This document shows, one piece after another, positions 13,489-34,372 of a stretch of 64,000 nt of DNA; positions within the stretch are counted from its first letter, which is position 1; each line of letters begins with the position of its first letter. Location of the stretch: the NCBI GenBank assembly GCA_001577345.1, contig LSLI01000001.1, positions 6,764 through 70,763 of the forward strand. Reading direction: 5' to 3'. The translations under genes and the position numbers were made by a program. The notes under the pieces are model-generated. The model had not been told where the DNA came from. It was given only the letters and a program-made list of their open reading frames with translations, and ran no database searches. This DNA is from Candidatus Gallionella acididurans. GTDB lineage: Bacteria; Pseudomonadota; Gammaproteobacteria; Burkholderiales; Gallionellaceae.

Positions 13489-13706
13489 AAGGGGAAATTA
13501 AAAAGCTGGCACATCATTCCGGCGAATTCGGGGAATCCAGAATGCCTCGTCATTGCAACAAGGCTTTAGCTGCGAGCGAAGCGCGGCAGGGGCGCAGCCG
13601 ACGTGGCAATCCAGATGGTTTAAAAAATGCATCTTGGTCTTGCTGGATTGCTTCACTTCGTTCGCAATGACGGCAAGGGTGTCGTGAATTATGGAAGTAT
13701 CAATAA
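13489..13706 (+). repeat. 218-bp composite palindromic element, copy 1 (direct repeat of 26738..26956)
   Basis: Nearly identical to 26738..26956. Contains a dRS3-like ATTCC..GGGAAT and the nested palindrome GTCATTGC..GGCAATCCAG..CTGGATTGC..GCAATGAC. Confidence 0.9.
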
Positions 13707-26737: not shown

Positions 26738-26956
26738 AAGGGGAAATTAAAAAAACTGGCACGTCATTCCCGCGAATTCGGGGAATCCAGAATGCCTTGT
26801 CATTGCAACAAGGCTTCAGCTGCGAGCGAAGCGCGGCAGAGGCGTAGCCGACGCGGCAATCCAGATGGTTTAAAAAATGCATCCTGGTCTTGCTGGATTG
26901 CTTCACTTCGTTCGCAATGACGGCAACGGTGTCGTGAATTATGGAAGTATCAATAA
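26738..26956 (+). repeat. 219-bp composite palindromic element, copy 2
   Basis: Direct-orientation copy of 13489..13706 with few substitutions. Confidence 0.9.
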
Positions 26957-27031
26957 CTTGTTGTTTGCGCGCTGGTTGAATATTGTTTTTGCTGATAGAT
27001 TGCCGACCCCGGATATGCGCAGCCCAACTGT

Positions 27032-27060
27032 AAATGTTAAATGGCCAAATGTTAATTGGC
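27032..27060 (+). promoter_or_regulatory. 14-nt direct repeat upstream of the TonB-dependent receptor
   Basis: AAATGTTAAATGGC-C-AAATGTTAATTGGC, one mismatch, 15-nt period. Confidence 0.4.
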
Positions 27061-27131
27061 ATGGAACAGGAATTCCGGGTGACACACTCCCAAAAGACGA
27101 AAACCGGGAATTTCCGATAAGAGGGCTATTG

Positions 27132-29192
27132 TTGAAAAAGCAAAGCGTCATACTCTTGCTGCTGTGCTTTTCCGGGCACTCGGCCAATACAGAAGCGGCC
27201 GACGATGCGGGCGAACTGAATTATTTTCAGGAGCTTCCCGTGGTGTTGAGCGCTTCGCGTTTGTACCAACCTTTGTCGGAAGCGCCGAACGCGATGACGG
27301 TGATCGATCAGAAGATGATAGTCGATTCCGGTTTCCGCAACATTCCCGATCTGTTCAAGCTGGTTCCCGGCATGTACGTGAGCTATTACAAGGGCAGCCA
27401 GGCCATTGTTTCCTACCACGGCGCGACAGACCAGTTCTCGCGGCGCATGCAGGTATTGATAGACGGCCGCAGCGTTTATATGTCGCCAAACAATACCGTG
27501 GACTGGGCCAACCTGCCGATCACGATAGACGATATCGAGCGCATCGAGGTGATTCGCGGCCCGGCTGCGGCATCCTATGGCGCAAATTCGACACAGGGCG
27601 TGATCAATATCATCACCAACGATGCGGGAGCTGTGGATGGCAAGCACGCCAAATATACCCGCGGCAACAAGGGGATCAACGACGCGGACGCCAGATTTGG
27701 CAGGCGCGGCGAAACGTTCGATTACCGGGCGACTTTGGGCTACACCGCCGATAACGGTTATGACAACCTTACTTCGGCACCTTTTCAGGACCACAGATTG
27801 CTGAATAACAGCAATGACAACAATCAGGCGCGCCTGATGAATTACCGCGGCAACTATCATCCCGATGGGGCCAACAGCTTTGACCTGCAGTTCGGTTTCA
27901 ATCACGACATACAAGGCGTAGGGTTCAATGACAAGAACCCGACCCCGGCCACGCCGACCAGCACGAATGGCAACCCGTTCCATGACCTGATCGCCAACAC
28001 CAGCTTTGTCCAGCTTGGCTGGACACGTGCACTGGAAAATTCTTCCGAGCTCAGCGTGCGTTATTACCATATCCAGGAAGACCAAAGCGAGGCATTCCCT
28101 GTTTACCTGGGTGGGGTGTACTACCCCGGCCCGGTGGCACAGACCCTGTCAGTCGGCCGCGACCAGCTTGAGGTGCAGCATACCCTGCGGACTTCCGAAT
28201 CGAACCGCCTGGTCTATGGAACGAATTACCAGACCAATACGGTCAACGGCCAGAGCGTCATGCCGCCCCTGTCGCTGGCCCTGTCTTCCACGTCGTTTAC
28301 CGAAGACCTGCAGATTTTCGCCAATGACGAATGGCGCATCACCAAGCGGCTCCTGCTCAACATCGGCAACATGTTCGAGAGGGATGCCTACGGAAATAAG
28401 GATATGTCACCGCGCGTATCGCTGAATTTCCATGTGACGCCGCAGAATACTTTCAGAACGGGAATTTCAGTTGCCTACCGGACGCCGGCATTGGCGGAAA
28501 CCAACTTCCCGGCAATCCAGCCCGGCGCATTGATCATTCCCAGTGCAACGGCAACAAGCCCGGCGCTGATCCCGGAAAAAATGGTATCCCGCGAGGTCGG
28601 TTATCTCGGTGAATTTCCGGACTGGGACACCACACTGGATATGCGCCTGTTCAGCGATCTGTTGAGCAATGGAATTTTCCCCGACCCGACAACAGGCATT
28701 TTTGTAAATGGAATGTCTGCCGAATATCACGGCTTCGAGGCCACGCTGAAAAAATCCTGGAATGAATCCGGCAACCTGACGGTTAATTTTTCGCATGAAT
28801 TCGCAAGCAGCAACGCCCCGGCTTTGGCTGCGGCCGGTTACTCGTATATGCAGCCGGCCAGTTCACTGGTCGGCGGCGACAAACTTGCACAAAGCCTGCC
28901 GCTGAACAATGTCAGCCTGCTTTACTCCCGGCATCTGACCGGTAATTATTCCTTCAGCACAGCTTATTACTATCAGAGCTCCCTGCAGCCATTTGACCGC
29001 GGGTGGATAGACTTTCAGCCGCAGCAGCATCGGGCGGACCTGCGCATTGCCCGGTCTTTTGAGGGTGCCGCCGGATTCAAGGGCAATGTGGCGCTGGTGG
29101 TGCAAAACCTGTTCAACCAGAATTACAGCGAATATATCGCCAGCAATGTCTTCAACCAGCGCGCCTATGTCATGACCGCAATCAACTGGTAA
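27132..29192 (+). CDS. TonB-dependent receptor
   Basis: Signal peptide, plug motifs VVLSASR and IERIEVIRGPAAASYG, VQNLFN and a terminal Trp. TTG start after RBS GAGGG. Confidence 0.88.
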   Translation: MKKQSVILLLLCFSGHSANTEAADDAGELNYFQELPVVLSASRLYQPLSEAPNAMTVIDQKMIVDSGFRNIPDLFKLVPGMYVSYYKGSQAIVSYHGATDQFSRRMQVLIDGRSVYMSPNNTVDWANLPITIDDIERIEVIRGPAAASYGANSTQGVINIITNDAGAVDGKHAKYTRGNKGINDADARFGRRGETFDYRATLGYTADNGYDNLTSAPFQDHRLLNNSNDNNQARLMNYRGNYHPDGANSFDLQFGFNHDIQGVGFNDKNPTPATPTSTNGNPFHDLIANTSFVQLGWTRALENSSELSVRYYHIQEDQSEAFPVYLGGVYYPGPVAQTLSVGRDQLEVQHTLRTSESNRLVYGTNYQTNTVNGQSVMPPLSLALSSTSFTEDLQIFANDEWRITKRLLLNIGNMFERDAYGNKDMSPRVSLNFHVTPQNTFRTGISVAYRTPALAETNFPAIQPGALIIPSATATSPALIPEKMVSREVGYLGEFPDWDTTLDMRLFSDLLSNGIFPDPTTGIFVNGMSAEYHGFEATLKKSWNESGNLTVNFSHEFASSNAPALAAAGYSYMQPASSLVGGDKLAQSLPLNNVSLLYSRHLTGNYSFSTAYYYQSSLQPFDRGWIDFQPQQHRADLRIARSFEGAAGFKGNVALVVQNLFNQNYSEYIASNVFNQRAYVMTAINW

Positions 29193-29197
29193 ACGCG

Positions 29198-30145
29198 GTG
29201 CACATCTCCTTGCCACAAACACAGCGGATATGGTTTAAACATGCATTTTGCTGGATGCTGTGGCTGCTTCTTCCCCTGCATTTTTCAGGCTATGCAGCGG
29301 ACCTGCGTGTGCTGCTGGTGCTGAGCGGCAATGAGGCTCCCTATCGGACTTTTGCAACAACCTTCAGGCAGAACCTGCCTGCGGACATCCATGTCAGCAC
29401 GCAGGAATACGCCGATTCATTTTCCGACAGCGGACGTCAAATTGACCTGATCGTCACGGTGGGCGAGCTGGCGGCAGTTTCGGTAATCCCGCATACAGGC
29501 CACCCGGTTCTTGCAACAATGCTGACCAGCTTCAGATATGCCGAGCTGGCAAACAACCGCCAGCCGGGCGGGGAGCTCTCGGCAATTTTTGTCGATCAAC
29601 CCTGGGGCAGGCAAGTGAGCCTGTTGCGCGCCGCATTGCCGTCCCGCAACAGGATAGGCATATTGCTCTCTCCGGGAACGGATTGGAAAACAGAGCAGCT
29701 GCGCAGGCTGTTGCTGGATCGTGGCGCAACCCTGGTCACCCAGGTTGCCGATTCTTCCGGCACATTGTCCGGCGACCTGGAGCGCGTCCTGTCACGCAGC
29801 GATTTGCTGCTGGCCATCCCGGACAACACCATCTACAACAGCAGCAACATTCGCGACATCATACTCAGCAGTTATCGCCACGGGATTCCGCTGGTAGGAT
29901 TGTCCCAATCCTATGTCAATGCCGGAGCGTTGTGCGCGGTCTTTTCCACACTGGAACAACTGGCTGCACAAACCGGTGCAGCGGTGATTGCCTATGCAAA
30001 ATCGGGGCAGTTGTCCGGGCCGCAATATCCCGACTCTTACAGTATTGCAGTGAACCGGCAGGTGGCCCGGTCACTGGGAATTGAATTGCCATCCCTGGAA
30101 GCCATACGCAACCAGATGGACAAAACAAAGGGAGGCGAACCTTGA
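29198..30145 (+). CDS. ABC-type substrate-binding-like periplasmic protein (no permease or ATPase nearby)
   Basis: Signal peptide, DLLLAIPDNTIY, YVNAGAL and IAVNRQVARSLGI, typical of the ABC_sub_bind fold. Confidence 0.8.
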   Translation: MHISLPQTQRIWFKHAFCWMLWLLLPLHFSGYAADLRVLLVLSGNEAPYRTFATTFRQNLPADIHVSTQEYADSFSDSGRQIDLIVTVGELAAVSVIPHTGHPVLATMLTSFRYAELANNRQPGGELSAIFVDQPWGRQVSLLRAALPSRNRIGILLSPGTDWKTEQLRRLLLDRGATLVTQVADSSGTLSGDLERVLSRSDLLLAIPDNTIYNSSNIRDIILSSYRHGIPLVGLSQSYVNAGALCAVFSTLEQLAAQTGAAVIAYAKSGQLSGPQYPDSYSIAVNRQVARSLGIELPSLEAIRNQMDKTKGGEP

Positions 30146-32619
30146 AAAAACTTAGTATCCGGCAGTTTGTCGCAGGGCTGGCACTGATCCCCATGCTGAT
30201 CATGATAGTCAGCCTGCAGACCTATTTCCTGCAAGACCGATCTTCTTATCTGGACCGCGACTTTGTGGAACGGGGCAAACTCATCGCCCGCCAATTGGCT
30301 TCCAGCAGCGAATATGGCGTGTTTTCGAATAATCAAACTTTCCTGCAAGACTTGGCCCGGGGAGTCATGCAGCAACGGGATGTGCGCGGGGTCATGGTGC
30401 TGAACGCCGCTTCCGAAAAATTGATTGAAATGGGCGACTTTTCCGGCCTATCCGCGAATGCGACAGCCGATGCAAACCAGACCATGCCGGATCATCCTGA
30501 CCCTGCCAATAAATTGCCGGTCAGCAAAGCCAACCCGGTATACAGCAGCGGGGAGAACCTGTGGATTTACCGGCCCATCATTCCGGTGCAAGTGGCGCTT
30601 GGCGAGCTCGAGGTCAATCCTGTGGCAGAGCCGACCGGCGCGGTCATTCTGGAAATGAGCTGGGCGCATATCAGGAAACTCAAGTCGGGCATGTTCTGGG
30701 CGATGGTGTTTGTGACAACGCTGTTTTTTTCGATAGCCGTTTTTCTGGCCTATTTTGTCAGCCGCCGTATCGCTTCCCCGATCCGGAAATTGAGCGATGC
30801 CGTGCAGATGATAGGTAACGGGCATCTTGAAACGCGTGTTTTTGTGTCTGACCGCGTCACCGAACTGAGCAACATGGCGCAGGGCATAAATGCGATGGCC
30901 GCACAATTGCAAAAAGAGAGCATGAGCTTGCACCGGCAAATCGAGGAAGCTACGCGCATCGCCGCCACCGCTTTTGAGTCGCAGGAAAGCCTGATAATCA
31001 CCGATGCTCAAGGCCTGATCCTGAGGGTCAACAAGGCATTTACTGAGAGCACGGGCTATACGTCCGAGGAAATCGTGGGCAAAAAACCACGCCGCCTGCT
31101 CGACTCCGGCCGTCACCCCCCCGAATTCTACCGGGCAATGTGGGAGACCATCCGTAGTACCGGGTACTGGCATGGAGAAGTCTGGGACAGGCGCAAGAAT
31201 GGCGAAATATATCCAAAGCTGCTTTCCGTCACTGCCGTCAAAGGGGACGACGGGGCCATTACGCATTATGTCGGGTCGCACATCGATATCACCGAGCGCA
31301 AGGCGGCTGAGGAAGAAATCCAGTACCTGGCGTTTTACGACCCCCTCACGCGCCTGCCCAACAGGCGGCTGCTGCAGGACAGGATAAGGCAGGCGCTGGT
31401 TTCCAGTGCGCGCAGCGGTCTCGAAGGTGCGCTGCTGTTCATAGACCTGGACAATTTCAAGAACCTCAACGACACGCTGGGGCATGACATCGGGGATATG
31501 CTGTTGCAACAGGTCGGGCAACGCCTGGGGAAGTGCATACGCGAAGGCGACACTGTGGCGCGTCTGGGCGGCGATGAATTCGTGGTGATGCTGTTAAGCC
31601 TGGGCAAGCAGCCCATTGATGCGGCAGCCCAGGTCGAGGTTGTCGGAGAGAAAATACTCGCAGCCCTCGGCCAGCTTTACCAGCTTGGCCCACACGCATA
31701 CCGGTGCTCTGCCAGTATCGGGGCCACCCTGTTTAACGACAGCCAGCAGGCGACAGAAGAACTGATGAAGCAGGCCGACATCGCCATGTATCAGGCCAAG
31801 AAAGCCGGCCGCAATACCCTGCGCTTCTTCGACAGGAGGATGCAGGAAAATATCTCCTCACGCGTCTTGCTGGAAGGCGAGTTGCAAAAAGCGCTCGTGA
31901 ATCACCAATTCCACCTGCATTATCAAATCCAGGTGGACAGTGCGTTCCGTCCCTGCGGTGCAGAGGCATTGATCCGCTGGCGGCACCCTGAACGCGGGCT
32001 GGTTTTGCCGGCTCAATTCATTCCGCTGGCGGAAGAGACCGGCCTGATACTGACGATAGGGCAATGGGTGCTGGAGACCGCCTGCGCCCAGCTCAGGGTA
32101 TGGCAGCAAGATGCGCTTACCCGCGACCTGACGCTGGCTGTGAACGTGAGTGCCAAGCAATTTCGTCAGGCCGATTTCGTGTCGCATGTGAAAACTGCCG
32201 TGAAGCGCCATGCCATCAACCCGGCGCTGATCAAGCTGGAACTGACCGAAAGCATGCTGCTGGAAAACATCGAAGACACCATTGCAAAAATGAACTCGTT
32301 GAACGCGATTGGCGTGAAGCTCTCTCTGGACGATTTCGGCACAGGTTATTCATCGCTGCAATATCTCAAGCGACTACCGCTGGACCAGCTTAAAATCGAC
32401 CAGTCTTTCGTCCGTGATATAACCTTCGATCGCAGCGACGTGGCGATAGTGCGCACCATCGTGGCCATGGCACGAAGCCTGGGCATCGCCGTCATAGCCG
32501 AAGGGGTGGAGACGGAACAGCAACGACAACTTCTCCTGCAAAACGGCTGCTCCCACTACCAGGGGTTTCTGTTCGGCGACGCAGTTCCAATCGGAAGATT
32601 CATGACATTGCTTAAATAG
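30142..32619 (+). CDS. Sensor DGC/PDE: BarA/GacS-like periplasmic domain-HAMP-PAS-GGDEF-EAL
   Basis: QLASSSEYG periplasmic motif, HAMP, PAS (WHGEVWDRRKNG), REGD I-site, GGDEF, AEAL and DDFGTGYSS. TTGA overlap with the upstream gene. Confidence 0.92.
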   Translation: MKKLSIRQFVAGLALIPMLIMIVSLQTYFLQDRSSYLDRDFVERGKLIARQLASSSEYGVFSNNQTFLQDLARGVMQQRDVRGVMVLNAASEKLIEMGDFSGLSANATADANQTMPDHPDPANKLPVSKANPVYSSGENLWIYRPIIPVQVALGELEVNPVAEPTGAVILEMSWAHIRKLKSGMFWAMVFVTTLFFSIAVFLAYFVSRRIASPIRKLSDAVQMIGNGHLETRVFVSDRVTELSNMAQGINAMAAQLQKESMSLHRQIEEATRIAATAFESQESLIITDAQGLILRVNKAFTESTGYTSEEIVGKKPRRLLDSGRHPPEFYRAMWETIRSTGYWHGEVWDRRKNGEIYPKLLSVTAVKGDDGAITHYVGSHIDITERKAAEEEIQYLAFYDPLTRLPNRRLLQDRIRQALVSSARSGLEGALLFIDLDNFKNLNDTLGHDIGDMLLQQVGQRLGKCIREGDTVARLGGDEFVVMLLSLGKQPIDAAAQVEVVGEKILAALGQLYQLGPHAYRCSASIGATLFNDSQQATEELMKQADIAMYQAKKAGRNTLRFFDRRMQENISSRVLLEGELQKALVNHQFHLHYQIQVDSAFRPCGAEALIRWRHPERGLVLPAQFIPLAEETGLILTIGQWVLETACAQLRVWQQDALTRDLTLAVNVSAKQFRQADFVSHVKTAVKRHAINPALIKLELTESMLLENIEDTIAKMNSLNAIGVKLSLDDFGTGYSSLQYLKRLPLDQLKIDQSFVRDITFDRSDVAIVRTIVAMARSLGIAVIAEGVETEQQRQLLLQNGCSHYQGFLFGDAVPIGRFMTLLK

Positions 32620-32798
32620 TGCTGGCCGCAGTTGGTATCGCAGCGGCTGGCGAGCACAGCCCCCGAGCGGACCGATCGTCTGCAATGAACCGGTTTGGGT
32701 TCAGGCAACCATGTCCGGGTTGTACCTGCTATCTGTTCCGCTGCCGCGACGGTTGCCGCTTGCGGCCATGAAGAGGACGTGCATCCGGGCGCTGCCCG

Positions 32799-32829
32799 AA
32801 AAAAACGCCCCAGCGAAGTGGGGCGTTTT
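32799..32829. terminator. Bidirectional intrinsic terminator
   Basis: AAAAAAACGCCCCA-GCGAAG-TGGGGCGTTTT between convergent genes. Confidence 0.7.
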
Positions 32830-32892
32830 GCATTCCGGCATGCGCGGTTTTTTGCGCTAACCAGGCATGGTTTGGTCCGGCTGTTTTAGAGG

Positions 32893-33582
32893 CTAGTCTC
32901 TGTCGCCGCTGAATGCCATCAGCAGGCTCAGCAGGTTGACGAAGATGTTGTAAATGTCCAGATACAAACTCATCGTCGCCATCACGTAGTTGGTCTGGCC
33001 GCCTTTGATGATCTGGCTGATGTCGAACAGGATGTAGGCCGAGAAGATCAGCACGGCGATCGCGGAGATGGTCAGCGCCAGCGCGGGCACCTGGAAGAAC
33101 ATGTTGGCCAGAGAAGCGACGATCAGCAGGATCACGCCAATGAACAGGAATTTGCCCATGAAGCTGAAATCCTTCTTGGTCACTGTTGCCAGTGTCGCCA
33201 GGCTGAAGAAGATGATCCCGGTTCCGCCTGCCGCCATGCCCACCAGTTGTGCGCCGTTCTTCAGGTGCAACGCGATTTGCAGGATAGGTCCGAGGAAGAA
33301 TCCGGCAACCAGCGTGAATGCCAGCAGCAACGCGACACCCCAGCCGCTATTGCGGGTCGCAGTTACGCCGAACATCAGGCCCATCATCACGGCGAACATC
33401 AGCAGGGAGAAGATGACCGGATGCAGCGCCATGAACGAAAAATTGGTGGTCATGCCGATGAAGGCACCGATCACCGTCGGGATCATCGTAAGCGCCAGCA
33501 TCATGTAGGTGTTGCGCAATACCGTGTTTTGCGCGGTTCCGATTGCACCGATTTGCGTTGCGGGAATATATTGTTGTTCCAT
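32893..33582 (-). CDS. yccA: Bax inhibitor-1/YccA family membrane protein
   Basis: VLRNTYMMLALT and LYLDIYNIFVNLL; 7 TM. Lies downstream of tRNA-Ser as in other proteobacteria. Confidence 0.9.
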   Translation of the reverse strand: MEQQYIPATQIGAIGTAQNTVLRNTYMMLALTMIPTVIGAFIGMTTNFSFMALHPVIFSLLMFAVMMGLMFGVTATRNSGWGVALLLAFTLVAGFFLGPILQIALHLKNGAQLVGMAAGGTGIIFFSLATLATVTKKDFSFMGKFLFIGVILLIVASLANMFFQVPALALTISAIAVLIFSAYILFDISQIIKGGQTNYVMATMSLYLDIYNIFVNLLSLLMAFSGDRD

Positions 33583-33698
33583 TTGAAGTCTCCTAAAAGT
33601 TATGCGTTTACTCAACAACGGGGGTAAGACTAGCGGAGTGCGGGTAAAGTTTCAATTGTGATGCTGATAGTGGATATATACGGGTTGAGAATGGGTCT

Positions 33699-33788
33699 TG
33701 GCGGAAGCGGTGAGATTCGAACTCACGGAGGACTTTCATCCTCGCTAGTTTTCAAGACTAGTGCCTTCAACCGCTCGGCCACGCTTCC
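33699..33788 (-). tRNA. tRNA-Ser, anticodon TGA
   Basis: Minus strand GGAAGCGTGGCCGAGCGGTTGAAGGCA-CTAGT-CTTGAAA-ACTAG, a long variable arm, GTTCGAATC and an encoded CCA end. Confidence 0.97.
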
Positions 33789-33871
33789 TAAATTGTTGTT
33801 ACTTCGCACTCGGGCGGCAGACTTGGCTATTTCGTGTCTTGCCTGGCGCTGCCAGCCCTTTGAGGTCGCGC

Positions 33872-33900
33872 ATTTTGAACCAAGCAGCCAACCGTGTCCA
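33872..33900 (-). promoter_or_regulatory. Probable sigma70 promoter of tRNA-Ser
   Basis: Minus strand TGGACA-17 nt-CAAAAT then the GC-rich discriminator GCGCGACC. Confidence 0.5.
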
Positions 33901-33916
33901 GGAAAACGCAGGCTAG

Positions 33917-34372
33917 TCAGGAAGGAACCCGGTTTCTCACGCAGTCGGCCCAGTTGTTGGGAGTTTCATAGAGGCGTACCTGCTCGAGGCGCAGATGGTT
34001 GCCGTAGGTGTCCCGGTAGGCCGGGGCCAGGATGTTGAATGCCTCCTGGGCGAGGTTCTCGGCTGTGGGCACGGTGTCGAGGATGACGGTTTTGTGATTC
34101 GGCAAACTTGCCAGAAAGTCGCATACCGGCTTGTCGCCGCGATACACCAGGAAAGCGTGATCCCAGGCGTCCACCAGTTTCTCCTTGGCGATGCGCTTGA
34201 CATCGGAGAAGTCCATCACCATGCCTTGTTCGGATAGCCCCTCGCTGGTGATGATGTCTCCGGACAGGGTGATCTCGATCGCATAGCGATGGCCGTGCAA
34301 GTGTTTGCACTGGCTGTTGTGGTTGGGGATGCGATGTCCGGCATCGAATTCCAGGCGGCGGGTGATATACAT
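33917..34372 (-). CDS. queD: 6-carboxy-5,6,7,8-tetrahydropterin synthase
   Basis: EFDAGHRI, CKHLHGHRY, WDHAFL, PTAENLA and LYETP. Confidence 0.92.
   Translation of the reverse strand: MYITRRLEFDAGHRIPNHNSQCKHLHGHRYAIEITLSGDIITSEGLSEQGMVMDFSDVKRIAKEKLVDAWDHAFLVYRGDKPVCDFLASLPNHKTVILDTVPTAENLAQEAFNILAPAYRDTYGNHLRLEQVRLYETPNNWADCVRNRVPS

Follow-up and report, generated by a model that had tools for sequence, protein, structure and literature searches.

A TonB-dependent receptor, an orphan PF04392 binding protein and an sCache_4-GGDEF-EAL sensor form a candidate trans-envelope sensing unit in Candidatus Gallionella acididurans

Results

Organization of the three-gene operon

We analysed a stretch of 64,000 nucleotides (nt) from Candidatus Gallionella acididurans (contig LSLI01000001.1, positions 6,764 to 70,763 of the forward strand), hereafter the 64-kb window, in which position 1 is the first letter. 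Its open reading frames (ORFs) include three co-directional genes on the + strand, at 27132-29192, 29198-30145 and 30142-32619. The first encodes a TonB-dependent receptor of 686 amino acids (aa) with a signal peptide, a Plug domain, a barrel of the 22-strand type and a C-terminal W (ORF reading, Pfam and NCBIfam). The second encodes a 315-aa periplasmic binding protein of the PF04392 type, which has a signal peptide and comes without a transporter (Pfam and AlphaFold). The product of the third is an 825-aa membrane sensor consisting of a transmembrane helix (TM1), an sCache_4 domain, a second helix (TM2), HAMP, PAS, GGDEF and EAL, as assigned by Pfam, NCBIfam and hydropathy.

The receptor stop codon TAA (29190-29192) is followed by a 5-bp gap, acgcg, and then by the GTG start of the binding protein gene at 29198. 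The TTG start of the sensor gene (30142-30144) overlaps the TGA stop of the binding protein gene (30143-30145), giving the 4-bp sequence TTGA, and a Shine–Dalgarno sequence for the sensor, GGGAGG (30130-30135, + strand), lies within the 3' end of the binding protein gene, 7 nt before the TTG. The ORFs and junctions agree with the initial annotation of this DNA, which had described three tightly coupled genes, the first two 5 bp apart and the last two sharing TTGA. The receptor ORF is open from 26877, and its likely start is TTG 27132 (or TTG 27129), 6 nt 3' of AGAGGG; TTG 27132 gives a 686-aa protein that opens with a signal peptide. A repeat element at 26738-26956, just upstream of the receptor gene, inflates the ORF to 26877. 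Part of this repeat recurs near 13.6 kb (13489-13706), and a related Gallionella locus (L011:4659-4775) matches window positions 13591-13706 at 97%.

A BarA/GacS-type input domain joined to a GGDEF-EAL output

The periplasmic part of the sensor is a BarA/GacS-type sCache_4 input domain (30235-30684, + strand; residues ~32-181) placed between TM 4-31 and TM 182-208 according to Pfam, PDB and hydropathy. Pfam delimits sCache_4 at residues 37-178 with a score of 32.1 bits against a cut-off of 22.1, followed by HAMP (205-257), PAS (283-385), GGDEF (397-558) and EAL (580-812). HAMP and PAS (30754-31296, + strand) would be the transmission and cytoplasmic sensing domains. The GGDEF domain (31330-31815, + strand) carries an RxxD I-site, REGD (467), next to GGDEF (476), and the EAL domain (31879-32577, + strand) carries EAL (608), NVS, ELTE, DDFGTG (730), KID, EGVE (787) and QGF. 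With RxxD, GGDEF, EAL, DDFGTG and EGVE all intact on motif reading, the sensor is a putative diguanylate cyclase and cyclic di-GMP (c-di-GMP) phosphodiesterase, and the Pfam search found no HisKA-HATPase-REC-Hpt phosphorelay output in it, its output being PAS-GGDEF-EAL.

Two further searches place the input side with BarA and GacS. The NCBIfam BarA model covers residues 2-272 (E 8e-21), and the best PDB match of the N-terminus is the periplasmic detector domain of Pseudomonas aeruginosa GacS (5O7J, E 2.7e-4). Together with sCache_4 and HAMP, these matches bear out the initial annotation, which had called the periplasmic part BarA/GacS-like and the cyclase/phosphodiesterase output intact in GGDEF, RxxD and EAL. 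That annotation had also singled out the motif QLASSSEYG; the motif is present, but it is the most conserved stretch of sCache_4 in all 68 sensors that we compared and thus a family-wide feature, nothing special to the Gallionella gene. The sensor is the sole sCache_4 protein in the genome.

No transporter partner for the binding protein

The binding protein matches PF04392 (ABC_sub_bind) with an E value of 1e-14 and 54.9 bits against a Pfam cut-off of 25.9. Its AlphaFold model has two lobes (predicted local distance difference test 88.6, predicted template modelling score 0.82), and Foldseek returned 3LFT, 3LKV and 6HNI/6HNJ as the closest structures, giving a two-lobe fold of type I. Among these, 3LFT is a PF04392 structure with bound aromatic amino acids, 3LKV is a PF04392 protein of unknown function, and 6HNI/6HNJ are structures of CD0873; LuxP stands at rank 33 among the structural neighbours. 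Judged by the model, the protein still looks like a ligand binder.

PF04392 ATP-binding cassette (ABC) importers of the TrpX type have an adjacent BPD_transp_2 permease and an ABC ATPase, whereas the Gallionella locus has neither, with no permease or ATPase gene within ~5 kb on either side of the trio. The contrast is also seen in distant canonical PF04392 genes (L136, L138 and L139), each of which is followed by one BPD_transp_2 permease, with an ABC ATPase next to the permease confirmed in two of the three (L136 and L139). The Gallionella genome, estimated to be 100% complete in 316 contigs, has exactly one PF04392-like gene. Its six BPD_transp_2 permease genes are spread over three Liv-type operons, all of which encode a Peripla_BP_6 binding protein of their own, so that no unpaired permease of this family is found in the genome. 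No importer is conserved beside any of the ~116 related loci examined. The binding protein is therefore without ABC permease or ATPase, as initially annotated, and a permease partner encoded elsewhere, which would have spoken against a sensing role, was looked for across the genome and not found.

The receptor belongs to one receptor clade

Both receptor domains score above their Pfam cut-offs, Plug (PF07715) with E 9e-21 and the barrel (PF00593, TonB_dep_Rec_b-barrel) with E 2e-20. A TonB-box-like segment, ELPVVLSAS (27231-27257, + strand; residues 34-42), was recognized by its conservation across trios, being kept as [EQ][LF]PVVLSASRL in those of Gallionellaceae and as VP.VLT[AT][ST]RL in those of Pseudomonas. 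The genome carries three TonB_C genes. A Pfam search found no N-terminal signalling (STN) domain in the receptor. Transducers of the FecA-FecR-FecI kind have an STN extension and an anti-sigma/extracytoplasmic function (ECF) sigma pair; the trio receptor has no STN and no such pair adjoins it, and the relay proposed here would instead run through a soluble binding protein.

The best NCBIfam match of the receptor is the TOL_0244 family (NF053590) with 192 bits, and the trio receptors of many families form one receptor clade that scores 190-270 bits to this model. Membership of the Gallionella receptor in TOL_0244 was rejected, as the family cut-off is 645 bits and true members precede a YfiR-like protein, not a PF04392 protein.

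The front end is conserved while the outputs are exchanged

Using a profile of 22 homologues, we retrieved 80 named loci, mostly from Gallionellaceae and other Nitrosomonadales-type metagenome-assembled genomes (MAGs), and 16 from a phylum-wide sample, 96 loci in all. An sCache_4 sensor lies directly downstream of the binding protein in 86 of the 89 loci with enough flank, and a related receptor immediately precedes the binding protein in 68 of 84 (81%). The 4-bp stop/start overlap between binding protein and sensor is found in nearly all related loci. A receptor is absent within 7 kb in L026, L027, L034, L036, L052, L054, L058 and L062 and displaced in others.

Among 68 full-length sensors, sCache_4 is present in every one and HAMP in 67. 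Their outputs differ: HATPase_c occurs in 34 (HisKA in 31, a receiver in 28), GGDEF in 32 and EAL in 3, the last being the Gallionella gene and two near-identical relatives. On the binding protein tree, the kinase/cyclase label switches at least 11 times, and well-supported branches alone force at least nine changes of the kinase label and at least seven of the cyclase label. Some genomes hold one kinase-type and one cyclase-type trio (L014/L016, L027/L057, L034/L052 and L049/L075). Pairwise distances of the binding protein correlate with those of the sensor input domain (r 0.84) and of the receptor (r 0.74), values reached in 0 of 2000 permutations, although common ancestry inflates such correlations and they are supportive only. 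This neighbourhood survey, suggested by the initial annotation, shows that receptor, binding protein and input domain recur as a set with correlated divergence and interchangeable kinase and cyclase outputs. The annotation had also mentioned similar, uncharacterized trios in other proteobacteria; such trios with kinase and cyclase outputs do exist, but 'uncharacterized' is outdated in view of the Pah system (PMC10570129) and PA1611 (PMC5812489), both considered below.

Distribution across the class and phylum

The arrangement is widespread. A sample drawn evenly across the class, here with Pseudomonas included, has members in 75 of its 400 genomes, representing 61 of 321 genera (E≤1e-16). Twenty loci taken from 20 families have the sensor in 19, the 20th being cut by a contig end, and an intact upstream receptor in 16. 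Complete tripartite sCache_4-HAMP-HisKA-HATPase-REC-Hpt kinases occupy the trio position in many lineages (L221, L224 and L233), and the sCache_4-HAMP-PAS-GGDEF-EAL architecture of the Gallionella sensor is found again in L229, L231 (Thiogranum longum) and L240. Within the family, 41 of 61 genomes hold one to three copies, and a search of 1.84 billion protein representatives gave 1709 clusters at E≤1e-30.

Two side observations were made in these samples. At L238:766-1864, the upstream receptor is reduced to two fragments of 133 and 132 aa and the binding protein and sensor are intact. In another class of the same phylum, genomes of 2-3 Mb have trios (L132-L135 and L190) with HAMP-PAS-HisKA-HATPase-REC sensors of ~775 aa, whose input domain is missed by Pfam and detected by the profile built here (E 1e-19 to 9e-24); the single family to which they belong accounts for 12 of the 33 matching genomes in the phylum sample.

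Relation to known sensory systems

The kinases BarA, GacS, VarS and LetS share with the Gallionella sensor an sCache_4 domain that is flanked by two TM helices, with HAMP after it. Kinases of this type go on to a kinase domain, a receiver and an Hpt domain, however, and the Gallionella sensor has none of the three. Binding proteins without transporters that control adjacently encoded membrane sensors are found in NspS-MbaA (Vibrio cholerae), LuxP-LuxQ, TorT-TorS and ScrB-ScrC, and MbaA and ScrC are GGDEF-EAL enzymes. We know of no dedicated outer-membrane receptor in any of these four systems, and their input domains, to our knowledge, differ from sCache_4. They use PotD-like or ribose-binding-like proteins whereas the Gallionella protein is of the PF04392 type; with NspS-MbaA, the logic alone is shared.

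The YfiB-YfiR-YfiN (TpbB) system resembles the trio in its three levels, with one protein in the outer membrane, a middle one in the periplasm and a c-di-GMP enzyme in the inner membrane. The middle protein of the YfiR type is a DUF4154 protein, though, while that of Gallionella is a two-lobe binding protein, and YfiB is a Pal-like lipoprotein and not a TonB-dependent receptor. A parallel module was seen at L170-L189, where TOL_0244 receptors (over or near the family cut-off) are followed, ~0.6 kb further on, by a ~190-aa YfiR/HmsC-like DUF4154 protein (Pfam E 1e-45). This module (e.g. L174:3940-4530 and L184:4010-4541) ends in a HAMP-type sensor, often with GGDEF-EAL.

The closest precedent is the cell-surface sensing system PahS/PahP/PahK/PahR, described in Cycloclasticus sp. 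P1 (Wang et al., iScience 2023, PMC10570129). Like the Gallionella trio, it has the order TonB-dependent receptor, binding protein and membrane sensor, and no transporter. The Pah proteins have 687, 318 and 771 aa compared with 686, 315 and 825 aa in Gallionella, so that the likeness is one of order, size and proposed logic. Its authors report that the receptor and the binding protein bind the ligand and that PahP binds both PahS and PahK; they also report unliganded PahP on the receptor, and its release is ligand-dependent in their model (PMC10570129). They propose that the molecule is imported as a signal and not as a nutrient, passing from receptor to binding protein to sensor (PMC10570129). 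Pah signals through a histidine kinase and an unlinked response regulator, whereas in Gallionella a PAS-GGDEF-EAL enzyme forms the output directly. In a published gene table, the regulator PahR is annotated as GacA (PMC8547461), which fits a GacS-type kinase as in these trios. PahK is described by the Pah authors as lacking a periplasmic sensor domain, whereas the Gallionella sensor has an sCache_4 domain of 150 residues. Cycloclasticus is a marine hydrocarbon degrader and Gallionella an iron-oxidizing autotroph, so the ligand probably differs from that of Pah.

As a side result, the primer Tn7-pahSf (PMC10570129) exactly matches 13 marine metagenome contigs (L241-L253). These matches were rejected as a route to pahS, as the matched site opens a 500-aa ORF resembling a flavin monooxygenase (MKHPYLDVLIVGAG...) and not a TonB-dependent receptor gene; the methods of PMC10570129 may carry a primer from another project. 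An exact look-up of ten binding proteins from the class-wide sample named Thiogranum and Thiohalobacter and did not name Cycloclasticus. Full-text literature searches on PF04392 or ABC_sub_bind with TonB, and on TOL_0244, returned nothing on the trio.

A counterpart is present in Pseudomonas. In Pseudomonas sp. PSE14 of the P. nitroreducens group (L125:4842-11756), a receptor, a binding protein and an sCache_4-like hybrid kinase lie between gpsA and fabA-fabB, with homology to the Gallionella trio in the receptor (E 2e-73), the binding protein (E 2e-37) and the input domain (E 1e-32). In P. aeruginosa, gpsA is PA1614. The trio apparently holds the position of PA1613-PA1612-PA1611, an orthology assigned by synteny. 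The PA1612-PA1611 operon lies immediately upstream of fabA and is co-transcribed with it (PMC3462791), and PA1613 is regarded in the literature as an outer-membrane protein for iron acquisition. PA1611, a hybrid sensor kinase, belongs to the GacS/RetS/HptB network, and its signal is listed as unknown (PMC5812489). While the Gallionella trio ends in GGDEF-EAL, PA1613-PA1612-PA1611 has a kinase/receiver output that feeds HptB and binds RetS. A literature search found no paper linking PA1612 or PA1613 to the input of PA1611, which may run via this unstudied binding protein and receptor.

Terminator and flanking regions

An A/U-flanked hairpin of 11 bp at 32802-32829 separates the operon from the convergent YccA/Bax1-I gene and is a likely terminator for both. 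It was supported by folding (-30.8 kcal/mol, z -4.76) and was not listed by the consensus terminator scan. The initial annotation had the genes ending at a terminator; a strong hairpin is there, but it lies 183 nt 3' of the sensor stop and is common to the operon and the convergent gene. The neighbours of the operon are unrelated housekeeping genes (RlmD-like, AsmA, HlyIII, YccA, TgpA and MoxR).

The GC content of the trio region (27000-33999) is 0.54-0.585 compared with ~0.60-0.62 in most of the flanking segments. Among public sequences, the nearest loci are in the Gallionella MAGs L010 and L011, at ~96-97% DNA identity. Recent acquisition of the trio as an island was considered, with which the low GC (0.54-0.57 in the trio) and the upstream repeat would be compatible; L010 and L011, the only close relatives, align collinearly with the locus where they could be compared and offered no empty site.

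Discussion

The existence of the trio is confirmed, and there is good support for its functional unity. We propose, with a probability of roughly 0.6, that the three genes work together as a single device for sensing across the envelope. The TonB-dependent receptor would move a specific external small molecule into the periplasm, where the PF04392 binding protein, an orphan that would have lost its ABC transporter, would capture it. The liganded or unliganded binding protein would then dock on the sCache_4 domain of the inner-membrane sensor. From there, the signal would pass via TM2, HAMP and PAS and shift the balance between synthesis by GGDEF and breakdown by EAL, in one direction or the other. 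The c-di-GMP level would be set in this way and, probably, the motile or attached lifestyle with it. The interpretation given in the initial annotation, that the receptor imports a molecule for sensing and the binding protein relays it, is partly supported: the conserved unit, the missing transporter and the interchangeable outputs are observed, and the import and relay steps would be as described if the trio works like the systems it resembles.

Several points weigh against this proposal. About a fifth of the related loci lack the receptor, so the pair of binding protein and sensor can work without an adjacent receptor. Control searches found no PF04392 gene in the genome of E. coli, whose BarA has the same input domain; sCache_4 therefore does not require a binding protein. 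The ligand may cross the receptor or may only trigger it. As GGDEF and EAL both look intact, the net c-di-GMP output is unpredictable, and the share of common ancestry in the distance correlations reduces their weight.

The same three parts could also serve ligand-independent or envelope-state sensing of the YfiBNR type, in which sequestration at the receptor controls the availability of a periplasmic repressor or activator of the sensor that resembles a binding protein, and no small molecule is handed on. Such a scheme draws on the TOL_0244 receptors, the closest named relatives, which precede a YfiR/HmsC-like DUF4154 protein, a known repressor type, and a HAMP sensor; the resting place of unliganded PahP on its receptor, according to the Pah authors, would suit it as well (PMC10570129). 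It is at odds with the full two-lobe fold that the binding protein keeps in a model of high confidence, with the TonB box, typical of active transporters, that the receptor keeps, and with the ligand dependence of release in the Pah model, and we consider it unlikely. Ordinary nutrient uptake through an unseen inner-membrane importer, with the sensor detecting the same substrate independently, appears less likely again. PF04392 is by origin a family of ABC-transporter binding proteins, and in an assembly of 316 contigs a gene might go unseen; yet conservation of an importer fails at all ~116 loci, the genome offers no unpaired BPD_transp_2 permease, and the near-universal 4-bp coupling joins the binding protein to the sensor and not to a permease. 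The presence of one binding protein and one sCache_4 sensor in the Gallionella genome likewise weighs against uptake.

The receptor might, finally, be a mere neighbour of a unit made of binding protein and sensor, with the ligand entering via porins. This would account for the loci in which the receptor is absent within 7 kb or displaced, but hardly for its place immediately before the binding protein in 81% of loci, in families far apart, nor for a single receptor clade that diverges in step with the binding protein (r 0.74); we think it very improbable.

The device would be of a precedented kind, with one relative characterized, and the Gallionella version differs by its direct c-di-GMP output and its chemolithoautotrophic, iron-oxidizing host. 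A broader proposal, which we make tentatively and hold to be somewhat doubtful, is that receptor, PF04392 protein and sCache_4 are a general and ancient front end feeding external molecules into the BarA/GacS family and its c-di-GMP offshoots. If true, the inputs of PA1611 (via PA1613 and PA1612) and of many GacS-type kinases in environmental Gammaproteobacteria would be molecules imported by a dedicated receptor, and in Gallionella the front end would directly gate the c-di-GMP switch by which cells change between swimming and attachment by stalk or biofilm.

The signals of BarA/GacS-type sensors and of most c-di-GMP enzymes are still unknown, and the trio ties a receptor and a binding protein to the input domain. 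This genetic tie spans about a fifth of the sampled genomes of the class and ~1,700 protein clusters. As a soluble binding protein is easier to purify and screen than a membrane sensor, it offers a practical route to these signals, for which the apparent Pseudomonas counterpart, PA1613-PA1612-PA1611, is a tractable laboratory test system. The main value of the locus lies in one more well-documented case and in the lead that it gives on PA1611. For Gallionella itself, the trio suggests that attachment or stalk-associated behaviour may be controlled, via c-di-GMP, by a chemical cue from outside.

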